Shown here: positions 3,345 through 22,693 of the stretch, piece by piece
Layout of the letters: every line of letters starts with the position of its first letter
Numbering within the stretch: the stretch's first letter is position 1
From: Gemmatimonadales bacterium
GTDB lineage: Bacteria; Gemmatimonadota; Gemmatimonadetes; Gemmatimonadales; GWC2-71-9
NCBI GenBank assembly: GCA_035491895.1
Contig: DATJJY010000094.1
Coordinates: 33,025-97,024 of the forward strand
Length of the DNA: 64,000 bases
Reading direction: 5' to 3'
The notes under the pieces: generated by a model
What the model was told of the DNA's origin: nothing
Database searches by the model: none
What the model saw: only the letters and a program-made list of their open reading frames with translations
Position numbers and translations under genes: made by a program

Positions 3345-3423
3345 TGCAGGGACTCTAGTAGAGAGGTTGGGTGGCGGGCCCCCGCATCCGACTCGTGTGC
3401 GGAGACCCACCGACCCGCTGTCC

Positions 3424-4542
3424 TCAGCTCGCCGGCTTGCGCGAGCCGGACCGTTCCCAGTTGACGAACAGGAACCCACCCGGCGCGTCGAACTTCGGCT
3501 CTCCCTGCCCGGGGAGAATCTGGAGCTGCAGCTCATCGACCTTGTTCTTGGAGCAGTCCCAGCAGGCGAGTGCGTAATCGCCGTCCCGCCGCGTGCGCGA
3601 CAGCAGCATCACGTGCACCTGCGCGTTGTCGGTCACCAGGCTGTCGTTCTTGTAGAGGTGTCCGAACGCCCACAGCGCCACGGCGCTGTTGATCGTCGGC
3701 ACGAGCGGCGTATGCACGGCGGTATTGCCGTGGTAGTACAACCCCAGGATCACGCCACCGAAGCGCGGATGATGCGGCACGTCCTTCGTCTGCACGCGAT
3801 CGAGCACGAGCTTCCAGCGCGCCCCGTCCTGGGTGGTGAAATCGGCAGTACCGTCCACCGAATCACGCACTGCGCCTTTGTCCCAGGCCGTGAACGAGAA
3901 GTTGCCCGCGATCGGGGTCACGTTGTTCGAGTAGGGACCGTTTTTCACCTGCGACTCGAGCCCTTCCCGTTCGTTGCCGAACTGCTGGAGAATGGGAGCG
4001 GCGCTATCGGGGAAAGGGAAGGGGCCGGGAAGGATCTGGATGACGGGTCCTCCACTCGTCACCCGGATCGCCTGGACGCTCGCTGACGGCTCGTGCATTT
4101 CGTGATTGAGCGTTGCGCTGGCCGGCGCGGCGCTGTGGCCCAATGTCGGCGCGTTCTGGGCGCCCACGACTCTCAGATGCGTCTCCATACCCAGGTGTTT
4201 GTGCGAGTCCTCCCCCACCGGGCAGTAGACGTCATAGGTACCGGGCTTGAGCGTGAGCTGCAGTGTCGCACTCGAGCCCGGCTGAATGACGGCGGTCTCT
4301 TGTTCGACACCCTCTCCCTCGACCTCGAAGGCATGGGGGATGGTGCCGGCGTTCGTGACGCTGAACGTCACGGCGCCCGCCAGGACGGTGGCTTGCGAGA
4401 GCTCGACTTTCCATTCGGACAACTTGGCGCTGACCGCGGCAGGGTCGCTCGGCGCGCGGTGTGCCGGAGTCCCGGCGAGCGCCAGGGCGGCAAGCAAGAG
4501 CCGGCCGGCGCTGTGGGACGCAATGGCGTGCAAGGGGTGCAT
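3424..4542 (-). CDS. Secreted cupredoxin-domain protein fused to an unrecognised ~230-aa C-terminal domain
   Basis: 372-aa ORF with a GGAGGA RBS just upstream of the ATG (cat at 4540-4542). Signal-peptide-like N-terminus (LLLAALALAGTPA). N-terminal ~90 aa have candidate type-1 copper ligands: H in TIPHAFEVEG, and C/H/M in VYCPVGEDSHKHLGM. The remainder has no motif I recognise. Confidence 0.85.
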   Translation of the reverse strand: MHPLHAIASHSAGRLLLAALALAGTPAHRAPSDPAAVSAKLSEWKVELSQATVLAGAVTFSVTNAGTIPHAFEVEGEGVEQETAVIQPGSSATLQLTLKPGTYDVYCPVGEDSHKHLGMETHLRVVGAQNAPTLGHSAAPASATLNHEMHEPSASVQAIRVTSGGPVIQILPGPFPFPDSAAPILQQFGNEREGLESQVKNGPYSNNVTPIAGNFSFTAWDKGAVRDSVDGTADFTTQDGARWKLVLDRVQTKDVPHHPRFGGVILGLYYHGNTAVHTPLVPTINSAVALWAFGHLYKNDSLVTDNAQVHVMLLSRTRRDGDYALACWDCSKNKVDELQLQILPGQGEPKFDAPGGFLFVNWERSGSRKPAS

Positions 4543-4618: not shown

Positions 4619-4622
4619 GCCG

Positions 4623-4650
4623 GGAATAATCCCGCCGGTGCCTGAGTCTC
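4623..4650 (+). promoter_or_regulatory. Candidate autoregulated ECF-type promoter for the sigma/anti-sigma operon (GGAATAA-N16-GTCTC)
   Basis: Reads GGAATAA tcccgccggtgcctga GTCTC, ~33 nt upstream of the GTG at 4683. The geometry resembles the GGAAC-N16/17-GTCT class of ECF promoters. Confidence 0.45.
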
Positions 4651-4682
4651 CTCTGAAGGCCGACCAGACATTGTGAGGGCCG

Positions 4683-5977: not shown

Positions 5978-7768
5978 TCAGGACGGAGCCTTCAGCTCGT
6001 GCAACTGCCGGTAGCGATTGCTCGACGCCACGAGCTCGCGGTGCGTGCCCATCGCCGCGACTCGGCCTTCCTCGAGCAATAGCACGAGGTCGGCGTCCTC
6101 GATGGACGCCAGGTCGTGCGTGATGCTGATGCACGTCTTGCCGGACATGAGGCGATCCAGCGCTTCCCGCACCTTGCCCTCGCTCTCCACGTCGAGCCCC
6201 GTCATCGGCTCGTCGAGAATGAGGATCGGCGCGTTGCGGACCAGCGCTCGCGCGATCGCGATGCGCTGGCGCTGCCCCCCCGACAAGGTGGCGCCCCGTT
6301 CGGCGATGACGGTGTCGTACCCGTCCTCCAGGTCTTGAATGAACTCGTCGGCGTTCGCGGCCCACGCCGCCGATTCGATCTCGAGGTCGGCCGCGTCGGG
6401 GCGGCCGTAGGCGATGTTCTCGCGGATCGTCGCGCCGAACAGGATCGCCTGCTGCAGTACCAGCCCGATGTTGCGCCGCAGCGACTTGATCTTGTAGTCC
6501 CCGATGTTTCGGCCGTCGATCCGGATCACACCGCTCTGCGGCTCGTACAACCGCAGGATCAGGGAGACGATGGTGGACTTACCCGCCCCCGACGCGCCTA
6601 CCAGCGCCAGGCGGCGGCCCGCCGGCACCGTGAACGAGACGTCGCGCAGCACCTCGCGGCCGTCGCCGTAATCGAACGACACGCGATCGAACTCGATCGC
6701 GCCCCGCAGCTCCGCCGCCTCGACGGCGCCGGCGTGGTCCATGATCTCGGGCTCGATGTCGAGCACCTCCGAAACGCGCTCCGCGCTCGCCATGGCTTTC
6801 GAGAAGTCGGTCGAGAGTGAGGCGAGGTTCTTCAACGGCTTGTACAGGCTGTTCAGGTACGCCACGACCAGTACCAGCGCCCCCGGCAGCAGCGTGCCGC
6901 GCAGCACCTCGAGCGCGCCGAACAGGACGGCCGCGGCCGTGCCGACCGCGGTGATGAGCTCCGATGAGCGACCGGCGGCGGCTCCCATCCGGGCCACGCG
7001 GATGCTCTCGATCACCGTTTCGGCCGTCACCTTGTCGAATTTCCGCATCTCGTGGGTTTCGCGCGCGAACGCCTGGACCAGCGGCACCGCCGAGAGCACT
7101 TCGCCCATACGAGCGGCGACCTGGCCCTCCTGCTTCTTCTGCGTCTTGACCGAGATCTTGGTCTTGCGGTACACGTGGAACAGGCTGTAGCCGAGGAACG
7201 GCATCGTCGCGAGGGAGATCACGCCGATCCGCCAATCGACGGTGAACAGGATCACGAGCATGCCCAGGACGGTCAACACCTGCGACGTGAATTTCAACAG
7301 CGAGTCCGCGAACCAATCCTTCAGCGTATTGGTATCGCCCGCGATCTTGGTCAGGAGATCGCCCGAGCGCGCCTTGGTGTGAAACGACAGGGACAGGCTC
7401 TGCAGGTGGGCGAACAGCTCCCGGCGCAGCGCATACACCGTGGTGTACCCGACGGAGGAGGTAATGAAAGTCTGGAAATAGGCGCACACACCCGACACGA
7501 GTGAGATCAGCACGATGCTCACGCACGCAGCCACGATGAACGGCACCGTACTGTCGGTGATGAGCGGCTGCAGGAATCGCAAGCTGTGGGGCAGCTCCTT
7601 GTGGAGCAGTCCGTGATCGATGATGAGTTTCAGCGGCCACGGCTTGGCGAGTTCGGTGAGAATGACGCCAATCGTGCACAACGCGGCGATCGCCAGGGGG
7701 CCTTTGGCCTCCCCCAGGTGGGTGACGAAGAACTGGCGGAACCGGGTGCGTCTGGCAGTGGCGGGCAT
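5978..7768 (-). CDS. ABC exporter, fused permease/ATPase (MsbA-like type I exporter)
   Basis: Six-TM exporter region plus nucleotide-binding domain: Walker A GASGAGKST, signature LSGGQRQR, Walker B ILILDEP. The ORF-track start is TTG 7774. The ATG at 7766-7768 (MPATARR...) is more likely. Confidence 0.93.
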   Translation of the reverse strand: MPATARRTRFRQFFVTHLGEAKGPLAIAALCTIGVILTELAKPWPLKLIIDHGLLHKELPHSLRFLQPLITDSTVPFIVAACVSIVLISLVSGVCAYFQTFITSSVGYTTVYALRRELFAHLQSLSLSFHTKARSGDLLTKIAGDTNTLKDWFADSLLKFTSQVLTVLGMLVILFTVDWRIGVISLATMPFLGYSLFHVYRKTKISVKTQKKQEGQVAARMGEVLSAVPLVQAFARETHEMRKFDKVTAETVIESIRVARMGAAAGRSSELITAVGTAAAVLFGALEVLRGTLLPGALVLVVAYLNSLYKPLKNLASLSTDFSKAMASAERVSEVLDIEPEIMDHAGAVEAAELRGAIEFDRVSFDYGDGREVLRDVSFTVPAGRRLALVGASGAGKSTIVSLILRLYEPQSGVIRIDGRNIGDYKIKSLRRNIGLVLQQAILFGATIRENIAYGRPDAADLEIESAAWAANADEFIQDLEDGYDTVIAERGATLSGGQRQRIAIARALVRNAPILILDEPMTGLDVESEGKVREALDRLMSGKTCISITHDLASIEDADLVLLLEEGRVAAMGTHRELVASSNRYRQLHELKAPS

Positions 7769-8062: not shown

Positions 8063-8596
8063 TCAAGGGGAGACCATGATCGGCGCGTTCGCAATCAAGA
8101 CCGCTCCGACCACGAGGATCAGGACGCCAGCCGCCCGAGCCACGAGGCGCGGGCGTGGGGCGAACCGCTCGAGCGCGATGAGTGCCGCGACCAGCATGAC
8201 CGCGCCGCGGCGCATCATCCCGGTCACGATCAGAAAGGTCATCAACCCGGCGCAGCAGAGGCAGCACTGTACGCCGAGCCGCACGCCCTCCAGGAGCGCA
8301 TCGCGCCATGTCGCCCGCGCTTGCCGGACGAGCTCACGGCAGCAGACGAGGCGCCGCGCCTTCCACGGCGTCCACTGCGTAATGACCGCGATGAGCAGCG
8401 CCAAGGCGGCAACGAGCGGCGCCGGCCACCACCGGTCGGCGATCACCAGGACGGTGCCCAAGGCGTACGCCGCTACCCCGGCAGAGGCCCACACGGTGAA
8501 GTAGCCGAGGGCGACGAGCGTTCCTTGCACTGCGCCGCGACGATCGCGGACCAGGAGCGGCGCGAGCGATGGCAGCATCATCGCCACCATCATCAC
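8063..8596 (-). CDS. DUF2182-family integral membrane protein (predicted metal-binding), apparently N-terminally truncated
   Basis: 177 aa starting at GTG with the family-typical W..MMVAMMLPSLAP motif. From memory, family members carry ~70 more N-terminal residues. The frame is open upstream to 8755 but has no ATG/GTG/TTG and runs into the DUF899 gene. Confidence 0.6.
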   Translation of the reverse strand: MMMVAMMLPSLAPLLVRDRRGAVQGTLVALGYFTVWASAGVAAYALGTVLVIADRWWPAPLVAALALLIAVITQWTPWKARRLVCCRELVRQARATWRDALLEGVRLGVQCCLCCAGLMTFLIVTGMMRRGAVMLVAALIALERFAPRPRLVARAAGVLILVVGAVLIANAPIMVSP

Positions 8597-9420: not shown

Positions 9421-9765
9421 ATGGCAACCGCCACCCGACGCAATCGGTCGCTCGACCGGGTCTATGGCGCGATCGCGGATCCCACGCGGCGCGCGATGCT
9501 GGCCGTCCTGGCCGGCGGCGACGTCACCGTCGGCACCCTCGCCGGCCGTTTCCCCATCACCTTCAATGGTGCCTCCAAACACGTGAAGGTGCTGGAACGG
9601 GCCGGCCTCGTGACCCGTCGCGTCCGGGGCCGCGAGCACTGGCTGCGGCTCGAGCCCCGCCCGCTGCTCGACGCCGCCCGCTGGATCGAGCACTACCGCG
9701 CGTTCTGGGACACGCGACTGGCCGCGCTCGAGACGTTGCTGGTGCGGCACCATAACCGCGCTTGA
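9421..9765 (+). CDS. ArsR/SmtB-family transcriptional regulator
   Basis: Winged-HTH core: YGAIADPTRRAMLAVLAGGDVTVGTLAGRFPITFNGASKHVKVLERAGLVTRR. The ATG at 9421 is preferred over the TTG at 9412. Paired with an SRPBCC gene, a common arrangement. Confidence 0.9.
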   Translation: MATATRRNRSLDRVYGAIADPTRRAMLAVLAGGDVTVGTLAGRFPITFNGASKHVKVLERAGLVTRRVRGREHWLRLEPRPLLDAARWIEHYRAFWDTRLAALETLLVRHHNRA

Positions 9766-9876
9766 AAGCGCGGCTCGGCGCTTCGCGGGGGCCCTGAAGG
9801 GCAGGAGCCGCGTGAATAGTGATTGACGTCTTTCAAGACGTGTCGCGTCCGCGCCGAGCCCCGGCTTTAGCCGGGG
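9756..9876. repeat. Multi-hairpin intergenic element, family B copy 1
   Basis: Four hairpins: CCGCGCT-TGAA-AGCGCGG, GCCC-TGAA-GGGC, ACGTCTT-tc-AAGACGT and CCCCGGC-TTTA-GCCGGGG. GCTCGGCG (9773-9780) and CGCCGAGC (9852-9859) bracket the central hairpins. The same plan recurs at 10650-10723 and 14894-14998. Confidence 0.75.
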
Positions 9877-9903
9877 AATCAACGCGCCGCATCTGGGGGG
9901 TTG

Positions 9904-10332
9904 ATGACCGTTGATCCTGTTCCCGGTTCCCTCGTGGTGCGGCGCACCATCCCCGTGCCACGCGAGGAAGTCTTCGCCGCCTGGCTCGATCCGGAGACCC
10001 TCCCAACCTGGATGTGTCCCGGCGGGGGCCGGACCACGGCGGAGCTCGACCCCAAGGTCGGCGGGTCGTTCCGGATCGTGATGCATCATGGGAGCGAAGC
10101 GACCGAACACACCGGCACGTACCTCGTGATCGAGCCGCCCAGCCGGTTGTCGTTCACGTGGATCTCCAGCTACACCGATATGCTGCCGAGCGTGGTGACC
10201 GTCGAGTTCCACACGCGGGGCGACGGCACCGAAGTCGTCCTGACGCACGAGCGGCTCCCGGCTCGGCACGTGGACGCACACAAGAAGGGATGGGGAGAGA
10301 TTCTCGCCACGCTCGAGATAGCCCTGCGGTGA
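9904..10332 (+). CDS. SRPBCC/AHSA1-like (Aha1 domain) protein
   Basis: 142 aa. VVRRTIPVPREEVFAAWLDPETLPTWMCP... and ...RLSFTW... are typical of activator-of-Hsp90-ATPase-homolog-like SRPBCC proteins found next to ArsR regulators. Confidence 0.88.
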   Translation: MTVDPVPGSLVVRRTIPVPREEVFAAWLDPETLPTWMCPGGGRTTAELDPKVGGSFRIVMHHGSEATEHTGTYLVIEPPSRLSFTWISSYTDMLPSVVTVEFHTRGDGTEVVLTHERLPARHVDAHKKGWGEILATLEIALR

Positions 10333-10365
10333 GCTGATAGCGGACGGCTGACAGCTGAAAGCGAC

Positions 10366-10611
10366 CTACCGGTAGATCCACCACGCGATCGGCGCCGGGA
10401 GAAATGCCACGAGGTCGATGATCCCGCTCCACGGCCCGTGCTCCGAGCGGCGAAAGTCTCCGTCCCCCAGCTCGTGCGCGAATCCCACCGAGAAGACCGC
10501 CACGAGAATCGCCGCGGGCGGCGTTCCCAGGAACGCCAGGACCGCGGTCAGGCCGATTCCGACGAGGAAGTGCTCGACGAGGCCGACCGGCGTTATCCAG
10601 CTGGGGATCAT
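10366..10611 (-). CDS. Small integral membrane protein, unknown function
   Basis: 81 aa with 2-3 hydrophobic helices. Strong G/C bias at third codon positions when translated by hand. Confidence 0.7.
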   Translation of the reverse strand: MIPSWITPVGLVEHFLVGIGLTAVLAFLGTPPAAILVAVFSVGFAHELGDGDFRRSEHGPWSGIIDLVAFLPAPIAWWIYR

Positions 10612-10649
10612 GAAGTAGAAGATATGGTTCGTTGGTCGTCTCTTCCCGT

Positions 10650-10723
10650 GGCCTGAAGGCCCGGCTCGGCGAAGTGTGGCGTCCTTAAGGACGCGCGTAG
10701 TGCCCGAGCCGGCGCTTCAGCGC
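10650..10723. repeat. Multi-hairpin intergenic element, family B copy 2 (short form)
   Basis: GGCC-TGAA-GGCC, then GCTCGGCG (10664-10671), a central GCGTCC-TTAA-GGACGC, then CCGAGCC (10704-10710) and GCGC-TTCA-GCGC. Confidence 0.65.
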
Positions 10724-10737
10724 ACGGAGAGCACGGA

Positions 10738-11205
10738 CTACGATTGCTTCCGTGTCGCCGTAAACCGCCGGGCCGGACCCTGGGACGAATGGTCGACCGC
10801 CACCCATTGCTCCGTGCCGACGAGCGAGTCCCCGTGCAGGGCGACGGTGTAATTCATCATCGCCTGGGTATGCGTCTCGCTTTCCATCACCCGCGTGACG
10901 ATCTCGCTCGGCTTGAGCGCTTCGATATGCACGCCGGCGCTCGTGAGTGTTCCGGCCAACAGGCGCGGGGGCCCGTCCGGGGCGCCCGTGGCGCCGAGGG
11001 TCTGCCAGGTGCCGTGAATCGAGTCGCCGGTCACCTGCAGCTCGATGCGTGCATGCCCCTTGCCGGCGGACGACTCGACCCCGTTCATGATCCTGACCTG
11101 GGTGTCGAACTCGGTGAACCAGGTGCCTGCGATGGCGGCCTGGGCCGGAAGCGACAACGGTACGGCACACACCAGGCACGCGAGAACGACGAATCGGCGC
11201 ATCAT
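10738..11205 (-). CDS. Exported hypothetical protein
   Basis: The start was moved to MMRRFVVLACLVCAVPLSLPAQA (signal peptide). The 34 aa upstream in the ORF track look non-coding. No recognisable domain. Confidence 0.7.
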   Translation of the reverse strand: MMRRFVVLACLVCAVPLSLPAQAAIAGTWFTEFDTQVRIMNGVESSAGKGHARIELQVTGDSIHGTWQTLGATGAPDGPPRLLAGTLTSAGVHIEALKPSEIVTRVMESETHTQAMMNYTVALHGDSLVGTEQWVAVDHSSQGPARRFTATRKQS

Positions 11206-11305
11206 GCGCTCCGCGGGAAGGGATGACGAACAGATGCGCGGGCCCCCGATTCGGTCGCGCGGCCCGGGAGCAGGACATACTTTCTGCGCCAACCCCGGAG
11301 GCTCC

Positions 11306-13411
11306 ATGCGCGTCCGCGCTGCCGTTCTGCTCGCCGTCCTCGTCCCTCACACGTCGCGACTCGCCGCGCAGCGCGCGATCGCCGACACCGATCTCTACGC
11401 GTTCCACTGGGTGGCGGGGCCGCAGATTTCGCCGGACGGCAGGCAGGTGGCATACGTCCTCGTGACCGTGAACTCCAAGCATGACGGCTACGAGACGCGG
11501 ATCTGGGCCGTGGCCACCGACGGCAACAGCGCCCCGCGCCGCCTCACCGCCGGCCCGCACGACGCCGCGCCCCGCTGGTCCCCCGACGCGAAAACGCTGG
11601 CCTTTCTCCGTCCCGTCGGAGACGACGGGTCCCAGCTCTTCCTCTTGACCCTCGACGGCGGCGAGGCGGTGCAGCTGACCGACGTCCCCAGTGGCGCGTC
11701 GCCGGCGGTGTGGTCGCCCGATGGGCGCACCATCGCGTTCGTGAACGGCGCCACTTCCGAAGCGATCGCTCAGAAGGCGAAGGGCGGAGAGCCGCCGAAG
11801 AAGAGCGACGTGCGCGTGATCACGCGAGCCGAATTCCGCAGCGACGACGAGGGGTACGCCGACCCCGCGGAGCACGGCCACCTGTGGACGGTACCGGCCA
11901 TCGCGAGTGACAGGCCCCAGGCTGCCCACCAGGTTACTTCGGGCGCGTTCGACGAAGCGATCCGCCAATGGAGCCCCGATGGACGCCGCATCTACTTCGT
12001 CTCGCAGCGTGTGGTGGAAGACTATTACGGGCGCCCCGACCAGGACCTCTTCTCGGTTGCCGCGACGGGGGGCGGGGGCGGGCCGATCGATACCGTCGTG
12101 AACATCGACGGGCCGGTGAACGCGCCCGTCCTGTCCCCCGACGCGCGCGCCGTCGCATTCCAGGGATTCGTGAACCCGCAAGAACCCCGCTCATACCAGG
12201 AGCAAGACCTGTACATCTGGCGCGGCGGCCGGCTCACGAACCTGACGGCCGACTACGATTTCGATATCGGCTCCGGCGTCCTGGGTGACGAGGCGCCGCC
12301 GCGGGGAGGCGGAGGCGGGCCCATCGTGTGGTCCCCGGATGGCAAGTTCGTGATCGCGGCAACGACGGAGCACGGCCGCTCGAACCTCATCCGGTTCGAC
12401 GCCGCGAGCGGCGCCCGCACGGCGCTCACCACGGGCGATCACGCCATTCTCGCCTGGTCGGCGACGCCCGACGCTCGCACCCTGGCGCTCACCGTGAGTG
12501 ATCCCACGCACCTCACCGACCTCTACGCGCTCGACGCGACGACGAAGAAGTTGACCCAGCTGACCCACGCCAACGACTCGCTCTTTGCGGGGCTCACCTT
12601 GTCCGCCCCGGAGGACTTCTGGTATCCGAGCTTCGACGGCCGCAAAGTCGAGACGTGGATTCTGAAACCGCCCGGCTTCGACCCGTCGAAACGCTATCCC
12701 CTGATCCTCAACATCCACGGCGGCCCACACACGGCGTACGGGTACATCTTCTTTCACGAGATGCAGTGGATGGCGGCGAAGGGGTACGTGGTGCTCTATC
12801 CGAATCCCCGGGGGAGCACGACGTACGGGCAGGACTTCGGCAACGTCATCCAGTACAACTATCCGGGAGACGACTACAAGGATCTGCTGGTGGCGGTCGA
12901 CTCGGTGATCCGCCGCGGCTACATCGACACCACGAGGCTCGGCGTGACCGGAGGCTCGGGGGGCGGGTTATTGACCGATTGGGCCGTCACCCACACCCAT
13001 CGCTTCGCGGCGGCGGTTTCGCAGCGCGATGTCGCCGATTGGCTCGGCTTCTGGTACACGGCGGACTTCACCCTCTTCCAGCCGACCTGGTTCCGGTCGG
13101 TGCCGTTCCACGATCCGCAGGAATTCCTGCGCCGCTCGCCGGTCCAATACGTCGACTCGGTGACGACCCCGATCATGTTCGTGCTGGGAGACGAGGACCT
13201 GCGGGCGCCGGCGACGCAAGGCGGCGAGGCGATGTTCCGCGCGCTCAAGTACCTCCACAAGACGGCGGTGATGGTGCGGTTCCCCGGGGAATCCCACGAG
13301 CTGTCCCGTTCGGGGAAGCCGAACCACCGCGTCGAGCGGCTCGACCACATCCTGAACTGGTTTGACAAGTACCTGCTGGGCAAGGACATCGCGCTCTACG
13401 ACCAGCAGTAA
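11306..13411 (+). CDS. S9-family serine peptidase (prolyl oligopeptidase/acylaminoacyl-peptidase type) with N-terminal PD40/TolB-like propeller
   Basis: ATG at 11306 after a GGAG RBS, signal peptide MRVRAAVLLAVLV... Repeated SPDG motifs. Catalytic GGSGGG serine, GDEDLRAP aspartate and GESHEL histidine. Confidence 0.93.
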   Translation: MRVRAAVLLAVLVPHTSRLAAQRAIADTDLYAFHWVAGPQISPDGRQVAYVLVTVNSKHDGYETRIWAVATDGNSAPRRLTAGPHDAAPRWSPDAKTLAFLRPVGDDGSQLFLLTLDGGEAVQLTDVPSGASPAVWSPDGRTIAFVNGATSEAIAQKAKGGEPPKKSDVRVITRAEFRSDDEGYADPAEHGHLWTVPAIASDRPQAAHQVTSGAFDEAIRQWSPDGRRIYFVSQRVVEDYYGRPDQDLFSVAATGGGGGPIDTVVNIDGPVNAPVLSPDARAVAFQGFVNPQEPRSYQEQDLYIWRGGRLTNLTADYDFDIGSGVLGDEAPPRGGGGGPIVWSPDGKFVIAATTEHGRSNLIRFDAASGARTALTTGDHAILAWSATPDARTLALTVSDPTHLTDLYALDATTKKLTQLTHANDSLFAGLTLSAPEDFWYPSFDGRKVETWILKPPGFDPSKRYPLILNIHGGPHTAYGYIFFHEMQWMAAKGYVVLYPNPRGSTTYGQDFGNVIQYNYPGDDYKDLLVAVDSVIRRGYIDTTRLGVTGGSGGGLLTDWAVTHTHRFAAAVSQRDVADWLGFWYTADFTLFQPTWFRSVPFHDPQEFLRRSPVQYVDSVTTPIMFVLGDEDLRAPATQGGEAMFRALKYLHKTAVMVRFPGESHELSRSGKPNHRVERLDHILNWFDKYLLGKDIALYDQQ

Positions 13412-13415
13412 CGGG

Positions 13416-14837
13416 CTAACGCAGTCCCACCGACCCCTTTGCCGCGGCGATCAGTTTCGCGGGGTCGTATCCCGTCCCGGCGCGAAAGACGAGCTCGACC
13501 TTTTCGACGTCGGCGATCTGCGCCGCCGGATTGCCGTTCACGACCACGAGGTCGGCGTCCTTTCCGGCGGCGATCGACCCGATGCGGTCGGTGCGGCCGA
13601 GATACGTCGCGCCGTTCAGCGTCCCGATCCGGATCGCCTCGAGCGGCGTGAATCCCGCCTCCACCAGGAGCTCCAGGGCGCGCTGGTTCGCGTATCCCGC
13701 CACCACGCCGCCGTAGCCGGTCGGGTCCGTGCCGGTGAGCAGCAGCCCGCCGGCCTGCGCGTACATCCGCTCGAGTCGCATCTCCTTGCGCAACAGCCCC
13801 GTCCACGTGGAGTCGGTCGACGTCGCGATGCGCAGCCGCGTCCGCGTGTACTGATCGCGTGCCTCGGGGAGCATCGCATCGAGGACACCGGGAGGTGCGG
13901 CCGGGCGTCCCGGCGTGAGCGTTTCGAACACCGTGAGCGTTGACGTCAAGGCGACGTGCTTCGAGACGAGATAGGCGATGAGGTCCTTCGCGGCGGGCCC
14001 GTTGGGATCGAGGGCAATGAGCGACGCCACCACCGAATCGTTGGCGGGGCAGACATCCGGCTGCTTCCGAGGGACGAAGTCGGTGGCGACGAGGAAGCCG
14101 TGCTCGAGATCGTCGATCCCGAGGTCCGTCGCCTCGCGAAACGTGACGGAGCAGAGGTGGGCGGTGAGCTTGAGACCGCGGCGGTGCGCCTCCGCGATCG
14201 CCGCGCCCAGCTCGGCGCGCGAGATGTGCATGTACGCCTTGAACGACGTCGCGCCGAGATCCGCCCAGTAGCCCACCATGCGCCGCGCCTCGTCGGCGTC
14301 CTTCAGAGCATGGACCTGTGACAGCGGGAGGCCCGGTCCTTCGAGGTAGGGTCCGGTGACGTCCATCGTCGGCCCCGCCATCTCTCCAGCGGCGATGCTG
14401 CGCGCGATGTTCAGGTCGGCGTACGGCTCGATGCTGCCGCCGGTGCGCATCGTCGTCACCCCGCCCGCCAGGTAGAGCTTGGGGAAACTCCACCCCTGCT
14501 CCGTATACATCCCGTTGCCCGCCGGATAGAACATGTGCTCGTGCACCATCACGAACCCGGGGAGCACGGTGCGGCCCGTGAGGTCCTTCACGTCCGCGCC
14601 GGCCGGGACGGCGACACTCGCCGCCGGTCCCAGCGCGGCGATCGTGCCGTTCCTGATCACGATCGTCTGGTCGTCCTGCGCCGGCGCGCCCGTTCCGTCG
14701 ATCACGCGCACGTGGGTGAGCGCCACCACGGGAGACGACACGGCGACATAGGGGCGGACGGCGGGGCCGGGCGTTTGAGCAACCGCCCGCCCTGCCAGCG
14801 CCAGGGTTGTAACGGTGAACACGAGAGGAGTGCGCAT
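13416..14837 (-). CDS. Amidohydrolase-family metallo-hydrolase (imidazolonepropionase/Xaa-Pro dipeptidase-like), exported
   Basis: The true start is MRTPLVFTVTTLALAGRAVAQ (cat 14835-14837). The upstream part of the 664-aa track ORF is antisense to the PadR gene. HxH metal motif VMVHEHMF. C-terminal ...DADLVVVNGNP... is typical. Confidence 0.9.
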   Translation of the reverse strand: MRTPLVFTVTTLALAGRAVAQTPGPAVRPYVAVSSPVVALTHVRVIDGTGAPAQDDQTIVIRNGTIAALGPAASVAVPAGADVKDLTGRTVLPGFVMVHEHMFYPAGNGMYTEQGWSFPKLYLAGGVTTMRTGGSIEPYADLNIARSIAAGEMAGPTMDVTGPYLEGPGLPLSQVHALKDADEARRMVGYWADLGATSFKAYMHISRAELGAAIAEAHRRGLKLTAHLCSVTFREATDLGIDDLEHGFLVATDFVPRKQPDVCPANDSVVASLIALDPNGPAAKDLIAYLVSKHVALTSTLTVFETLTPGRPAAPPGVLDAMLPEARDQYTRTRLRIATSTDSTWTGLLRKEMRLERMYAQAGGLLLTGTDPTGYGGVVAGYANQRALELLVEAGFTPLEAIRIGTLNGATYLGRTDRIGSIAAGKDADLVVVNGNPAAQIADVEKVELVFRAGTGYDPAKLIAAAKGSVGLR

Positions 14838-14893
14838 GGCGGGTAGGATACGGCTTCCCAGGTGGTAGAGCGAGACCTGCGCCAATGCACGAC

Positions 14894-14998
14894 GGCTGAA
14901 ACCATCGCTCGGCGCCCGCGGCGACGCGTCTTGAAAGACGCACGGAACGGGCCATTCATGGCCCGTCGCGCAGCGCCGAGCGCCGGCTTTAGCCGGCG
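14894..14998. repeat. Multi-hairpin intergenic element, family B copy 3
   Basis: GCTCGGCG (14907-14914), GCGTCT-TGAA-AGACGC (14926-14941), GGGCCA-TTCA-TGGCCC (14949-14964), CGCCGAGC (14974-14981) and CGCCGGC-TTTA-GCCGGCG (14981-14998). Confidence 0.75.
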
Positions 14999-15061
14999 AA
15001 CAAAGCGGCCTGACTAAATCCTGAATTTCCCCCCCCTCGTGCAACCGTTTCCTCCCATGTA

Positions 15062-15075
15062 TTGTCGAATGACAA
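15062..15075. promoter_or_regulatory. Palindrome TTGTC-GAAT-GACAA, candidate PadR operator
   Basis: 14-bp perfect inverted repeat, 24 nt upstream of the PadR start, in an unusually AT-rich stretch. Confidence 0.4.
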
Positions 15076-15098
15076 GGTATCGCACCCAGGAGGCTCAC

Positions 15099-15431
15099 GT
15101 GGCCGAACGCGCCGATCTGCTGCAGGGGACGCTCGATCTGCTCATTCTCAAGACCCTCATCCTGGGCCCGCTGCACGGCTGGGGAATTTCGAAACGCCTG
15201 CGCCAGCTCTCCGCCGACGTGCTCGACGTCGGGCAGGGGAGTCTCTACCCGGCGCTGTATCGCCTTGAGGACAAGGGCTGGATCAGCGCGCACTGGGGCG
15301 AGAGCCCCGAGGGCCGGCGGGCCAGGTTCTACACCCTCACCGCGAGCGGACGGAAGCAGTTCGCCGCCGAGCGGTCGGAGTGGCGGCTGTTCTCGACCGC
15401 GGTGAATCACGTCCTCAAGGCGACCGCATGA
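15099..15431 (+). CDS. PadR-family transcriptional regulator
   Basis: GTG at 15099 follows an AGGAGG RBS. The LLQGTLDLLILKTLILGPLHGWGISKRL...GSLYPALYRLEDKGWI motif is classic PadR. Confidence 0.93.
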   Translation: MAERADLLQGTLDLLILKTLILGPLHGWGISKRLRQLSADVLDVGQGSLYPALYRLEDKGWISAHWGESPEGRRARFYTLTASGRKQFAAERSEWRLFSTAVNHVLKATA

Positions 15432-20179: not shown

Positions 20180-20749
20180 ATGGGGGTGCGCATGGAGCAG
20201 CGGATCGGCTTTGGAAAGCGCCTGGGAGCTCTGGCCCTGGACTGTGTCTTCGTCATCATCCTGTCGGTTGTCGGCGGGACGACGATCGGTGGCTGGTTCG
20301 GCGCCTACACCGGAGCCCTGACGGCCGGTGCGGCGAGCGCCGCCGCGAGCGCCTCGGGTGATGCGCAGGCGGCGGCTGCCATGGGCGGGATCTTCGGCGC
20401 TATCATCGGCATGGCCCTGGCCGCGACGGTGATCGGCACGGTGTATTTCCTGCTCGAGGGATTCACCGGGTACACCCTTGGCAAGTTCATTCTGGGGATC
20501 CGGATTGCGAGCGACGACGGGACGGCCGCCGGCATCGGCAAGCTGCTGTTTCGGTACCTGGTGAAGAACTCCAACCTGGTTTTGTCGCTGTTGGCGCTGT
20601 TCACGGGTGTGACCGCATTGGCGACACTGGGTAAAGTGGCGGGGTTGCTCATCTTCGTCGGGTGCTTCTTCACGCTCGGCATGAAGCGGCAGGCGTTCCA
20701 CGACATGATCGCGAAGACGGCGGTGTATCCGAAGGGGGCGATAAAGTAG
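20180..20749 (+). CDS. RDD-family membrane protein
   Basis: GFGKRLGALALDCVFV...YTLGKFILGIRI...GMKRQAFHDMIAKTAV matches the RDD domain pattern. The start may be the ATG at 20192. Confidence 0.85.
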   Translation: MGVRMEQRIGFGKRLGALALDCVFVIILSVVGGTTIGGWFGAYTGALTAGAASAAASASGDAQAAAAMGGIFGAIIGMALAATVIGTVYFLLEGFTGYTLGKFILGIRIASDDGTAAGIGKLLFRYLVKNSNLVLSLLALFTGVTALATLGKVAGLLIFVGCFFTLGMKRQAFHDMIAKTAVYPKGAIK

Positions 20750-20750
20750 A

Positions 20751-20870
20751 ACGGTAGGAGACGGTAGGGGGCGGTAGGAGACGGTAAAGGGAAACGGCCG
20801 AGGCAACGTTGCCCGGCCGTTTTCTCGTCTCACCCCTACCGTCTCCTACCGTTCCCTACCGTCTCCTACC
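20751..20870. repeat. ~120-bp near-perfect palindrome built from 4 x 10-bp GGTAGG-containing repeats per arm
   Basis: Left arm: ACGGTAGGAG ACGGTAGGGG GCGGTAGGAG ACGGTAAAGG. Right arm: CCCCTACCG TCTCCTACCG TTCCCTACCG TCTCCTACCG. The arms flank a central hairpin. Confidence 0.9.
20792..20824. terminator. Central hairpin AAACGGCCG(A)GGCAAC/GTTGCCCGGCCGTTT followed by a short T-run; likely terminator for the RDD gene
   Basis: ~15-bp stem with one bulge, then TTTTC on the + strand, 43 nt after the stop codon. Confidence 0.5.
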
Positions 20871-21084
20871 GCCGCGACAGCCCCACCCCGAACTGAAACA
20901 GCTCCACGCTCGTCTGATCGAGCACCTGCTGGCCGTTGAATTTCACTTCCGCGCCGGTCGAACACGTCGCCGTTTCGCGGATCGATCCGCCAGGTCATCG
21001 CGCAGATCGACAACAGCCTCGACAACCTCAACCCGTCGGGACCCGGGATCGGGCAGAGCCGTTCACTCACCCACCTGAGTTCGC

Positions 21085-21207: not shown

Positions 21208-21315
21208 ACTGCTAGACGCCCAGACGCACCGGGGAAAACAGTGAACAGATAGAGATAGGTAGGCCTACCTGTCCCCCGTTTACTGTTCTCCCCGGTGCGT
21301 CTGTGCTCTAGCAGT
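21208..21315. repeat. ~100-bp hairpin element, family A copy 1
   Basis: CTAGACGCCCAGACGCACCGGGGAAAACAG...GGTAGGCCTACC...CTGTTCTCCCCGGTGCGTCTGTGCTCTAG. The arms are mutual reverse complements. It begins 3 nt after the tRNA. Confidence 0.9.
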
Positions 21316-22541: not shown

Positions 22542-22549
22542 GCTGGTAC

Positions 22550-22666
22550 CTGCACGACTAGACGCACAGACGCACCGGGGAAAACAGCGAACAGATGAGG
22601 CCGGGTAGGCCTACCTGAGACCCGATATCTGTTCTCCCCTGTGCGTCTGTGCGTCTAGTATTGCAG
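22550..22666. repeat. ~100-bp hairpin element, family A copy 2 (same orientation as copy 1)
   Basis: CTAGACGCACAGACGCACCGGGGAAAACAG...GGTAGGCCTACC...CTGTTCTCCCCTGTGCGTCTGTGCGTCTAG. About 85 of ~100 positions are identical to copy 1 by hand alignment. It starts 9 nt after the arsM stop. Confidence 0.9.
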
Positions 22667-22693
22667 TTTCCCGTCTTTTAGGTCGTAGACCTT

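Follow-up and report, generated by a model that had tools for sequence, protein, structure and literature searches.

The stretch of DNA analyzed here, 64,000 nucleotides of a contig from a Gemmatimonadales bacterium (hereafter the window, to which all positions refer unless another locus is named), carries a gene for an ArsR-family regulator (9421–9765, plus strand, 114 aa; Pfam HTH_20 at 1e-10) followed by a gene for an SRPBCC/AHSA1-domain protein (9904–10332, plus strand, 142 aa, with its ATG at 9904; Pfam AHSA1 at 3e-28). The ArsR stop codon and the SRPBCC initiation codon are 138 nt apart, and the junction contains a multi-hairpin element, c1 (9754–9879), which we studied together with two further copies in the window, c2 (10633–10738) and c3 (14887–15001). 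As argued below, c1 is a four-hairpin form that can be read as the left end of a unit encoding a Y1 transposase, joined directly to the right end. Its hairpin cluster comprises 121 bases (9756–9876) and four hairpins, namely H1 (CCGCGCT-TGAA-AGCGCGG, 9756–9773), the loop of which contains the ArsR stop codon (TGA, 9763–9765), H2 (GCCC-TGAA-GGGC, 9791–9802), H3 (ACGTCT-TTCA-AGACGT, 9826–9841) and H4 (CCCCGGC-TTTA-GCCGGGG, 9859–9876). The left core GCTCGGCG (9773–9780) pairs with the right core CGCCGAGC (9852–9859), and the two cores enclose the middle hairpins H2 and H3. The outer 26 nt of c1 form an inverted repeat, and the ends of c2 and c3 do likewise (terminal inverted repeats of 24–26 nt). 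An earlier note on this DNA had described the four hairpins, the TGA in the first loop, the bracketing cores and the 138-nt gap, and all of these were found where it had placed them.

The last two ArsR codons and the stop codon (CGC GCT TGA, 9757–9765) consist of c1 sequence, and the ArsR protein ends in ...LVRHHNRA in the window versus ...LVRRRGAR in homologues, its length being unchanged. Downstream of c1, a segment that is now non-coding spacer before the SRPBCC gene (9883–9907, plus strand) appears to be a relic of the former ArsR 3′ end, including the old stop/start overlap ATGA (9904–9907); it can be aligned to the 3′ end of ArsR in three loci lacking the element, L119, L120 and L122 (a moderate match, judged by eye). 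The exact ArsR protein of the window was found on six metagenome contigs, with the 138-nt gap in each of them. In two independent metagenome assemblies (L132 and L133), c1 was recovered with 0/121 mismatches, and c2 was identical in one of them. Because c1 is identical in two independent assemblies, it is not an assembly artefact, and the filled ArsR–SRPBCC allele is real and widespread.

Orthologous loci without the elements

Orthologous loci were obtained through a search with the ArsR protein, from the contigs of its close homologues, and share the gene order DUF899, ArsR, SRPBCC, an 81-aa gene, a 153-aa gene, S9 peptidase, amidohydrolase, PadR and permease. Locus L119, with the same gene order and 88–93% nucleotide identity to the window, lacks c1, c2 and c3. 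Its ArsR and SRPBCC genes overlap by 4 nt (GTGA), and a 4-nt overlap is also present in L120 and L122. At the c2 site, the 81-aa and 153-aa genes are separated by 13–14 nt in L119 (14 nt) and L122, compared with 126 nt in the window. The gap between the amidohydrolase and PadR genes, in which c3 is located, measures 117 nt in L119 versus 261 nt in the window. In L122 the c1 and c2 sites are empty and the c3 site holds a different palindromic element; in L120 the c1 site is empty, a TonB-dependent receptor gene is located at the c2 position, and the locus ends before the c3 site. A covariance model of the element (see below) detected no copy anywhere in L119, L120 or L122.

Taken together, the empty relatives, the change in the ArsR tail and the relic downstream indicate that c1 was inserted within the final codons of the ArsR gene and that its first loop supplies the new TGA, in agreement with the earlier note, which had proposed both an insertion into a normally tight ArsR–SRPBCC pair and an element-borne stop codon. 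In the window, strongly folding DNA over the full length of the gap now lies between two genes that overlap in relatives, and we infer that translational coupling between ArsR and SRPBCC was lost through c1. By the same comparison, c2 and c3 appear to be similar recent insertions, in a co-directional and a divergent gap, respectively.

The region varies further among relatives. At the site equivalent to that of c3, L122 (7400–7540) and another orthologous locus, L072 (reverse complement, 4620–4670), carry a different long palindrome, GACGCCAAGCCGCCGAGCCGC ... GCGGCTCGGCGGCTTGGCGTC, in which GCCGAGC and GCTCGGC occur in reverse order, so that the element in the amidohydrolase–PadR gap differs by lineage. 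L072 also carries a right-half element (H3-GCGCCGAGC-H4) between the SRPBCC gene and the 81-aa gene (reverse complement, 672–762), where the equivalent segment of the window (10333–10365) is only 33 nt long, and it lacks both the 155-aa gene and c2.

Copies c2 and c3

The plan of c1 is repeated at 10646–10727 (c2) and 14890–14998 (c3). Copy c2 is a short, three-hairpin form composed of hairpin H1 (10650–10661), GCTCGGCG (10664–10671), a central palindrome GCGTCCTTAAGGACGC (10679–10694), CCGAGC (10704–10709) and hairpin H4 (10712–10723), and its neighbours are two minus-strand genes: it separates the stop codon of a 155-aa gene for a secreted protein from the start of an 81-aa gene for a membrane protein. 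Copy c3 is again a four-hairpin form, with H1 (14890–14907, one mismatch), GCTCGGCG (14907–14914), H2 (14926–14941), H3 (14947–14966), CGCCGAGC (14974–14981) and H4 (14981–14998), in the divergent gap between an amidohydrolase gene (13416–14837, minus strand) and a PadR gene (15099–15431, plus strand). The gaps holding c1 and c2 are both co-directional, that of c2 being on the minus strand.

A covariance model constructed from 47 copies of other genomes recovered exactly these three copies in the 64-kb window: c1 (match 9755–9877) at 51.4 bits (E 3.5e-9), c3 at 47–48 bits on both strands and c2 (match 10645–10730) at 37.9 bits, the next best score being 15.9 bits (E = 0.1). The two further sites claimed in the earlier note were thus retrieved by a model that had not been built on them. 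A search pattern based on the two ends matched three times in the window, compared with 0.00 expected matches (100 shuffles), which exceeds chance. Ten of the 12 perfect hairpins in the window with a stem of at least 4 bp and a TGAA, TTCA, TTAA or TTTA loop were located inside c1, c2 or c3, and the fold z-scores of the three copies relative to shuffled sequences ranged from –4.3 to –6.2 on both strands. A scan for the terminator consensus detected no T-tract after any of the hairpins of c1, c2 or c3, and since no T-tract follows them, we rejected the reading that the elements are simply terminators.

The family across Gemmatimonadota

We searched one genome per species with the strict two-end pattern, in which the outer loops and six core bases were fixed and the inner hairpins were left free, and found at least 118 loci in ~72 assemblies (counted by accession prefix; species-level metagenome-assembled genomes, MAGs), as expected from the dispersed family resembling repetitive extragenic palindromic (REP) sequences or miniature inverted-repeat transposable elements (MITEs) that had been proposed from the window. 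Among the matches listed, all but four loci were labelled Gemmatimonadales, Gemmatimonadota or Gemmatimonadaceae. Of the exceptions, L035 (Polyangia) looks like a chance match in a coding region and has no hairpins, L083, a contig of 3.7 kb with the label Acidobacteria, shows synteny to a locus of Gemmatimonadales, and L086 and L116 are labelled only as uncultured bacterium. The retrieved loci, 784 kb in total, contained at least 138 copies, compared with the three in the 64-kb window.

The 131 non-redundant matches follow a common plan, H1(TGAA)-GCTCGGC-H2(TGAA/TAAA)-H3(TTCA/TTTA)-GCCGAGC-H4(TTCA/TTTA), and the dispersed elements span 66–125 nt; in the short form, to which c2 belongs, a single central palindrome (...CTTAAG...) is present. 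Although the inner loops were absent from the search pattern, they were nonetheless TGAA or TAAA followed by TTCA or TTTA, in that order, and the seventh core base (GCTCGGC/GCCGAGC), also not part of the pattern, was kept in 128–129 of 130 copies. The covariance model gave 257 strand-hits at E < 1e-3 in 100 loci, nearly always on both strands. When 47 copies were aligned with MAFFT, pairing was possible in 96.8% of cells, compared with 28–39% when the partners were slid, and both sides had changed in 19 of 29 pairs, although much of this covariation lies between a few subfamilies and the independent events are fewer than the cell counts suggest. Stems differ between and within subfamilies and are fully compensated; for example, H1 of one subfamily occurs as CCCATCC/GGATGGG, CCCACCC/GGGTGGG, CCCACGC/GCGTGGG and CACACTC/GAGTGTG. 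Such covariation implies selection for hairpin formation.

Short motifs beside the cores and the outer hairpins were also compared. In the 11 nt beside GCCGAGC, the motif G[TC]AG was enriched 2–4 nt from the core (29% and 22% of copies versus a background of 6.6%), while the tag GT[AG]G occurred in 11.5% and 4.6% of the core-adjacent 11-mers (background, 6.5%) and is not conserved. In the short form, G[TC]AG corresponds to the stop-codon region of the transposase gene described below and extends the core stem (GCTCGGCCACTAC/GTAGTGGCCGAGC). The bases adjoining H1 and H4 were T/G and A/C only.

Several loci illustrate the diversity of the family. L095 contains a variant subfamily (5988–6072 and 6560–6644) in which 5-nt loops (CCCTGAGAGGG, CCCTTACAGGG, GGGCTCTCAGCCC) replace T(G/A)AA and the GCTCGGC/GCCGAGC core is retained; these copies flank a Y1 gene. 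At an orthologous site downstream of an orthologous gene, L004 (2623–2718) and L101 (442–536) carry copies of two subfamilies (GCGCGAGTGAAC... and CCCATCCTGAAGG..., respectively), which suggests that the same intergenic sites are used repeatedly. In L088, the genes of a paralogous ArsR–SRPBCC pair (3581–4400) overlap by 17 nt, and a copy of another subfamily is located ~100 nt upstream of ArsR, in the promoter region (3384–3480). Tandem arrays in which the element and a spacer are repeated together were found with periods of 186 bp (L085; 2875–3739, 4.7 copies, 94% identity), 196 bp (L068/L100, corresponding to positions 8080–8430 of contig CAYWNR010000087.1) and 140 bp (L089/L114, which differ in copy number). 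An integron attC or CRISPR-like array was rejected for these because the spacer is repeated too, so that they are tandem duplications. Two further candidates were rejected for the family as a whole. Recognition of CTGAAG as a restriction site does not fit the covariation of the closing pair (C-G, G-C, T-A), which leaves only the T(G/A)AA centre constant, and a role as operator for ArsR or PadR does not fit the neighbouring genes, which differ from one locus to the next without being related.

A Y1 transposase gene between the element ends

Inspection of open reading frames (ORFs) between paired copies revealed a 135-aa ORF in L097 (1468–1875) that matches Pfam Y1_Tnp (IS200-like transposase) at 1.9e-16. 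By tblastn, homologues were detected in seven of the ~120 loci that had been chosen for their elements, between or beside copies; in L050, L095, L012 and L102, the Y1 gene lies between two copies. The transposase like RAYT (REP-associated tyrosine transposase) or IS200 enzymes whose search the earlier note had suggested is therefore present in related loci, though not in the 64-kb window.

Two sets of loci were then chosen by protein. The first consisted of contigs encoding five Y1 homologues, and L123, L125, L126, L130 and L131 carry copies on both sides of the Y1 gene. The second resulted from a metagenome scan with a Y1 alignment and comprised 80 loci, of which 57 had at least 350 nt on both flanks; half sites were identified by relaxed patterns that give about one spurious match in the 64-kb window. 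A solo left half ~95 nt upstream and a solo right half 30–70 nt downstream of Y1 were present in 41/80 loci (30/57 of those with both flanks). In a further 7/80 (7/57), elements stood on each side of the Y1 gene and one or more of them was a full copy; 24/80 (16/57) had an element on one side only and 8/80 (4/57) had none within 400 nt, so that halves or full copies stood on both sides in 48 of the 80.

The resulting unit, 533 bp long at the median, follows the plan left end [H1-GCTCGGC-H2], Y1 gene, right end [H3-GCCGAGC-H4], with the consensus 5′-TTTATCCGT GCCCTAAAGGGC CGGCTCGGCC ACTACACGCGTCCTAAAGGACGC ... Y1 ... AGCCCTTCAGGGCT CGTGTAGTG GCCGAGCCGG CGCTTCAGCG CACGGATAAA-3′. Each end has two hairpins, and the ends are mutually inverted copies of 24–35 nt. 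In L127 and L129, which belong to the first set, the Y1 gene lies inside the element, with H1-GCTCGGC and the central hairpin upstream and GCCGAGC-H4 overlapping the 3′ end of the gene. When Y1 was removed computationally, the ends of these two loci aligned without gaps to short copies, including c2 of the window. The Y1 stop codon of L127 and L129 lies within CGTGTAGTG, which is kept in short copies; c2 has GCGCGTAGTGCCCGAGCC. For the four-hairpin type (c1 and c3), the same junctions of left end with Y1 and of Y1 with right end were found on contig CAYWNR010000087.1, whose junction sequence CCAACTCC is common to miniature copies.

Because of this gap-free alignment of the ends and these shared junctions, we conclude that the dispersed elements are the left end plus the right end of the Y1 unit, a miniature copy being apparently a unit from which the Y1 gene was deleted. 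Short copies far outnumber Y1 genes. We therefore consider it very probable that c1, c2 and c3 are non-autonomous miniatures of a transposon specific to Gemmatimonadales, ~533 bp long, whose sole product is a small IS200-type Y1 (HUH) transposase.

Some Y1 loci are noted for their own sake. In L095, a partial element runs into the 3′ end of the Y1 gene (6090–6494), which has lost its Y motif there. The Y1 loci L018 and L050 come from two species and are orthologous. On contig Ga0209239_1000751 (L156 and L209), two Y1 genes of the family are ~3.4 kb apart, and at least some genomes therefore carry more than one copy.

The type of the Y1 enzyme

The Y1 homologues have a median length of 132 aa, and among 120 of them, the HuH motif [DN]HVH was present in 110 and the tyrosine motif YVRxQxx[KR]H in 115, while Y---NP was present in none. 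The NCBIfam IS200 model scored 47–65 bits, around its cut-off of 55, and PDB sequence matches were to IS608, ISDra2 and other IS200-family TnpA proteins (~1e-8); the E. coli RAYT structure was not matched in this PDB search. According to Quentin et al. 2018 (PMC6006769), Y---Q marks class 1 (IS200), Y---Q--HH marks subclass 1.2 and Y---NP marks the class 2 RAYTs. Judged by these motifs, the partner transposase is IS200-like (Y---Q) and not a canonical RAYT.

We accordingly weighed the possibility that the elements are a canonical population of REP sequences or of REPINs (REP doublets forming hairpins) that is kept by a domesticated single-copy class 2 RAYT. The elements are indeed high-copy, extragenic and inverted doublets, Y1 genes flanked by full copies in a REPtron-like manner are known (L050, L095, L102, L123 and L130), one Y1 protein, P0122, was found in the same genomic context in four samples, and the JGI annotation names many of these proteins RayT. 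Nevertheless, the tyrosine motif is Y---Q and not Y---NP, the NCBIfam RAYT model (REP_Tyr_transpos) has a cut-off of 80 bits and gives 28, the copies do not conserve the GT[AG]G tag, and the commonest arrangement, half element, gene and half element, is that of an insertion sequence. We regard this explanation as very improbable.

Genomic context of the copies

With a simple gene caller based on third-position GC content (GC3) that was made for this analysis, so that the counts are approximate, 99 of 101 copies for which both neighbours were called were intergenic. The gaps of these 99 copies were co-directional in 65, convergent in 23 and divergent in 11 cases, compared with 455, 87 and 80 background gaps; convergent gaps were thus somewhat over-represented (23/99 copies versus 87/622 gaps). 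The median distance from a copy to the neighbouring stop codon was 28 nt, and a few copies overlapped the stop codon. Clustering of recurrent neighbours in search of a transposase yielded only abundant paralogues, which we take to be ADOP-type permeases, the gene caller having missed most Y1 genes.

A tendency toward gene ends could also be expected if the element were primarily a structured RNA, either a cis-acting stabilizer or terminator in the 3′ untranslated region or a family of small RNAs, with hairpins selected at the RNA level. The strong covariation of the stems, the very stable folds, the many copies within ~30 nt of a stop codon and the excess of convergent gaps would fit this idea, and REP-type elements are known to have been co-opted as mRNA stabilizers. 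However, the elements are two-fold symmetric and score nearly equally on both strands, copies also occupy divergent promoter gaps (c3 among the 11), and no T-tract follows the hairpins. Rfam gave no match in the window at gathering thresholds and none at E ≤ 1 in 9600–15100. Moreover, presence or absence differs between close relatives, and the elements form the two ends of a transposase unit. A primary role as structured RNA, which the earlier note had kept as an alternative, is therefore not favoured, and we consider it improbable.

Evidence against a Y1-mobilized element

Several observations weigh against the interpretation of the copies as miniatures of a Y1 unit. A tblastn search detected no Y1 homologue in the 64-kb window, and some Y1 genes elsewhere are decayed, with an in-frame stop codon in L050 (7309–7662) and a frameshift in L012 (414–766), or, in L018 (2502–2855), with a histidine in place of the catalytic tyrosine (IRHIEGQ). 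The ends are inverted over 24–35 nt, whereas canonical IS200/IS605 elements have no inverted ends. The approximate nature of the context counts should also be considered. Filled and empty sites could, in principle, reflect precise deletions. In addition, c1 is present at the same site in L072 (~85% identity to the window) and absent from the closer L119, which requires recombination, loss or a second insertion. The segment from the ArsR 3′ end to SRPBCC is 83.7% identical between the window and L072 and 78% between the window and L119, while elsewhere the window is closer to L119; this pattern suggests that the segment was recombined, rather than that c1 was inserted twice.

The junctions of c1 and c2 also look, by eye, as though a target of ~6–12 nt were present on both sides, which would be unexpected because HUH enzymes make no target duplication. 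Inverted similarity extends 10–14 nt beyond H1 and H4, and ~30 nt in some lineages, so that the termini are uncertain; with this uncertainty, no fixed tetra- or pentanucleotide target motif was found next to the copies. Over 127 copies there was no general target duplication, exact repeats of at least 7 nt occurring 8 times versus 4 expected. Filled and empty pairs from different species are too diverged to be aligned for such a test.

The apparent duplications at c1 and c2 and the terminal inverted repeats are what would be expected of a classical MITE moved by a DDE transposase through its 24–35 nt inverted repeats, with target-site duplication and with the link to Y1 being incidental. This possibility conflicts with the lack of a general duplication over the 127 copies and with the neighbouring genes, among which no DDE transposase recurs; nor does it account for the 41 loci, out of 80 chosen independently of the element, in which the Y1 gene lies precisely between halves and the distances are fixed. 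We consider it highly unlikely, and favour mobilization by the Y1 enzyme.

Proposed mechanism

The element is best read as a REPIN- or MITE-like, non-autonomous element that would be moved in trans. Read 5′ to 3′, either strand shows two T(G/A)AA-loop hairpins, then GCTCGGC and then the mirror image, and the two strands present the same hairpin order because the ends of the unit are inverted. By analogy with the TnpA enzymes of IS200/IS605 and with RAYT enzymes, a transposase encoded elsewhere in the genome may recognize these hairpins on transiently single-stranded DNA, cut near them through a 5′-phosphotyrosine link and rejoin the ends. Miniature copies would thereby be moved in trans into intergenic DNA, often beside stop codons.

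Comparison with known systems

The closest relatives of the enzyme by sequence are those of the IS200/IS605 family (IS200, IS608 and ISDra2), likewise small Y1 proteins (~132 aa in the present family) that carry HuH and Y---Q motifs. The unit length of ~0.5 kb, the hairpins at either end, the derivatives reduced by deletion to the ends alone and the lack of a general target duplication are further similarities; palindrome-associated elements of haloarchaea are such miniature IS200/IS605 derivatives. In contrast, canonical end hairpins are of the same strand and without terminal inverted repeats, while in the present family they are inverted, with two hairpins per end, and no target tetranucleotide could be defined.

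MITEs of the DDE type in bacteria include Correia/NEMIS of Neisseria and RUP, which have defined target duplications and ends that match DDE insertion sequences. The present elements are similar in being small, non-coding, intergenic and bounded by inverted repeats and in being able to alter neighbouring gene ends, but neither a general target duplication nor a recurrent DDE transposase was found.

The resemblance to REP sequences, bacterial interspersed mosaic elements (BIMEs) and REPINs with their RAYTs in E. coli and Pseudomonas (PMC2817692, PMC3116915, PMC6006769) extends further: both occur at many sites per genome as short extragenic palindromes rich in GC, with inverted doublets able to fold into one long hairpin, several subfamilies per genome, a Y1/HUH enzyme gene that is often flanked by copies and a preference for gene 3′ ends. 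They differ in that the Gemmatimonadales element has no conserved 5′ GT[AG]G or CGTC tag, that each half consists of two T(G/A)AA hairpins and an invariant GCTCGGC rather than one imperfect palindrome, that the enzyme has the IS200 signature Y---Q and not the Y---NP of RAYTs, and that the gene usually lies between two halves of one element and not between whole REPs. The Gemmatimonadales system thus works like REPIN/RAYT, yet it departs from it in two defining features, the tag and the Y---NP enzyme, and fits the IS200 family better.

TIRtrons, in which long inverted repeats lie on either side of a Y1 gene of the TIRYT type (Di Nocera et al. 2013, PMC3733652), also resemble the present unit, in that the inverted repeats are partly self-complementary and solo copies are moderately abundant and occur singly, as dimers or in clusters. 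Most TIRYT proteins, however, belong to class 2.1 and have C-terminal helix-turn-helix (HTH) domains, and their repeats contain GGGGWSAS (PMC6006769), whereas the Gemmatimonadales Y1 proteins are short and class-1-like and their repeats are without this motif. The survey of Di Nocera et al. covered eight phyla, and Gemmatimonadetes was not among them. TnpA-Y1 subclass 1.2 (PMC6006769) shares short proteins with DH[IV]H and a Y---Q motif that a conserved His follows (YIKNQKEHH in the subclass, YVRxQxx[KR]H in the present family). This subclass has been reported chiefly in Cyanobacteria and Bacteroidetes, without REP-like sequences associated with it (PMC6006769), unlike the strong association with elements observed here; membership in it is judged from motifs alone. 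Gemmatimonadetes is not named in Quentin 2018 (PMC6006769).

No earlier description of the family was found in Rfam or in the full-text literature on Gemmatimonadetes repeats and transposons, consistent with the earlier note, which could not assign it to a described element. The family therefore appears not to have been described before, but it is of a recognizable kind, the miniature non-autonomous element of a Y1 transposon.

Other palindromes of the window

Other long palindromic intergenic elements occur in the window at 21218–21306 and 22545–22671, which share AGACGCACCGGGGAAAACAG arms of 29 and 43 nt, and a third palindrome (20749–20873) has 35-nt arms rich in GGTAGGAGAC repeats. These three are probably members of further dispersed repeat families.

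Implications

Gemmatimonadota are abundant soil bacteria, and to our knowledge almost nothing of their mobile-element biology has been described. The family is a lineage-wide source of intergenic variation in this phylum. It can rewrite gene ends, as for the tail and stop codon of ArsR, and would break translational coupling, and it also inserts into promoter regions, for example upstream of PadR (c3). For annotation, these repeats can be marked with the two-end pattern and the covariance model in MAGs, where unannotated copies inflate the fraction called intergenic, truncate or extend ORF calls and break assemblies.

An IS200-type enzyme combined with symmetric, REPIN-like multi-hairpin ends offers a system for studying the origin of REP/RAYT from IS200-like elements, and for asking how Y1 enzymes read hairpins. 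We tentatively raise the possibility, for which we see somewhat less than an even chance, that an undescribed REPIN-like population is kept by an IS200-class Y1 enzyme (class-1.2-like, Y---Q...H) across Gemmatimonadota. If true, this population would stand, as a living intermediate, between IS200 insertion sequences, which are selfish, and RAYT/REPIN, a domesticated partnership. It would also represent a new recognition logic, in which each end offers two hairpins whose T(G/A)AA loops are fixed, together with an invariant GCTCGGC, in identical form on both strands.

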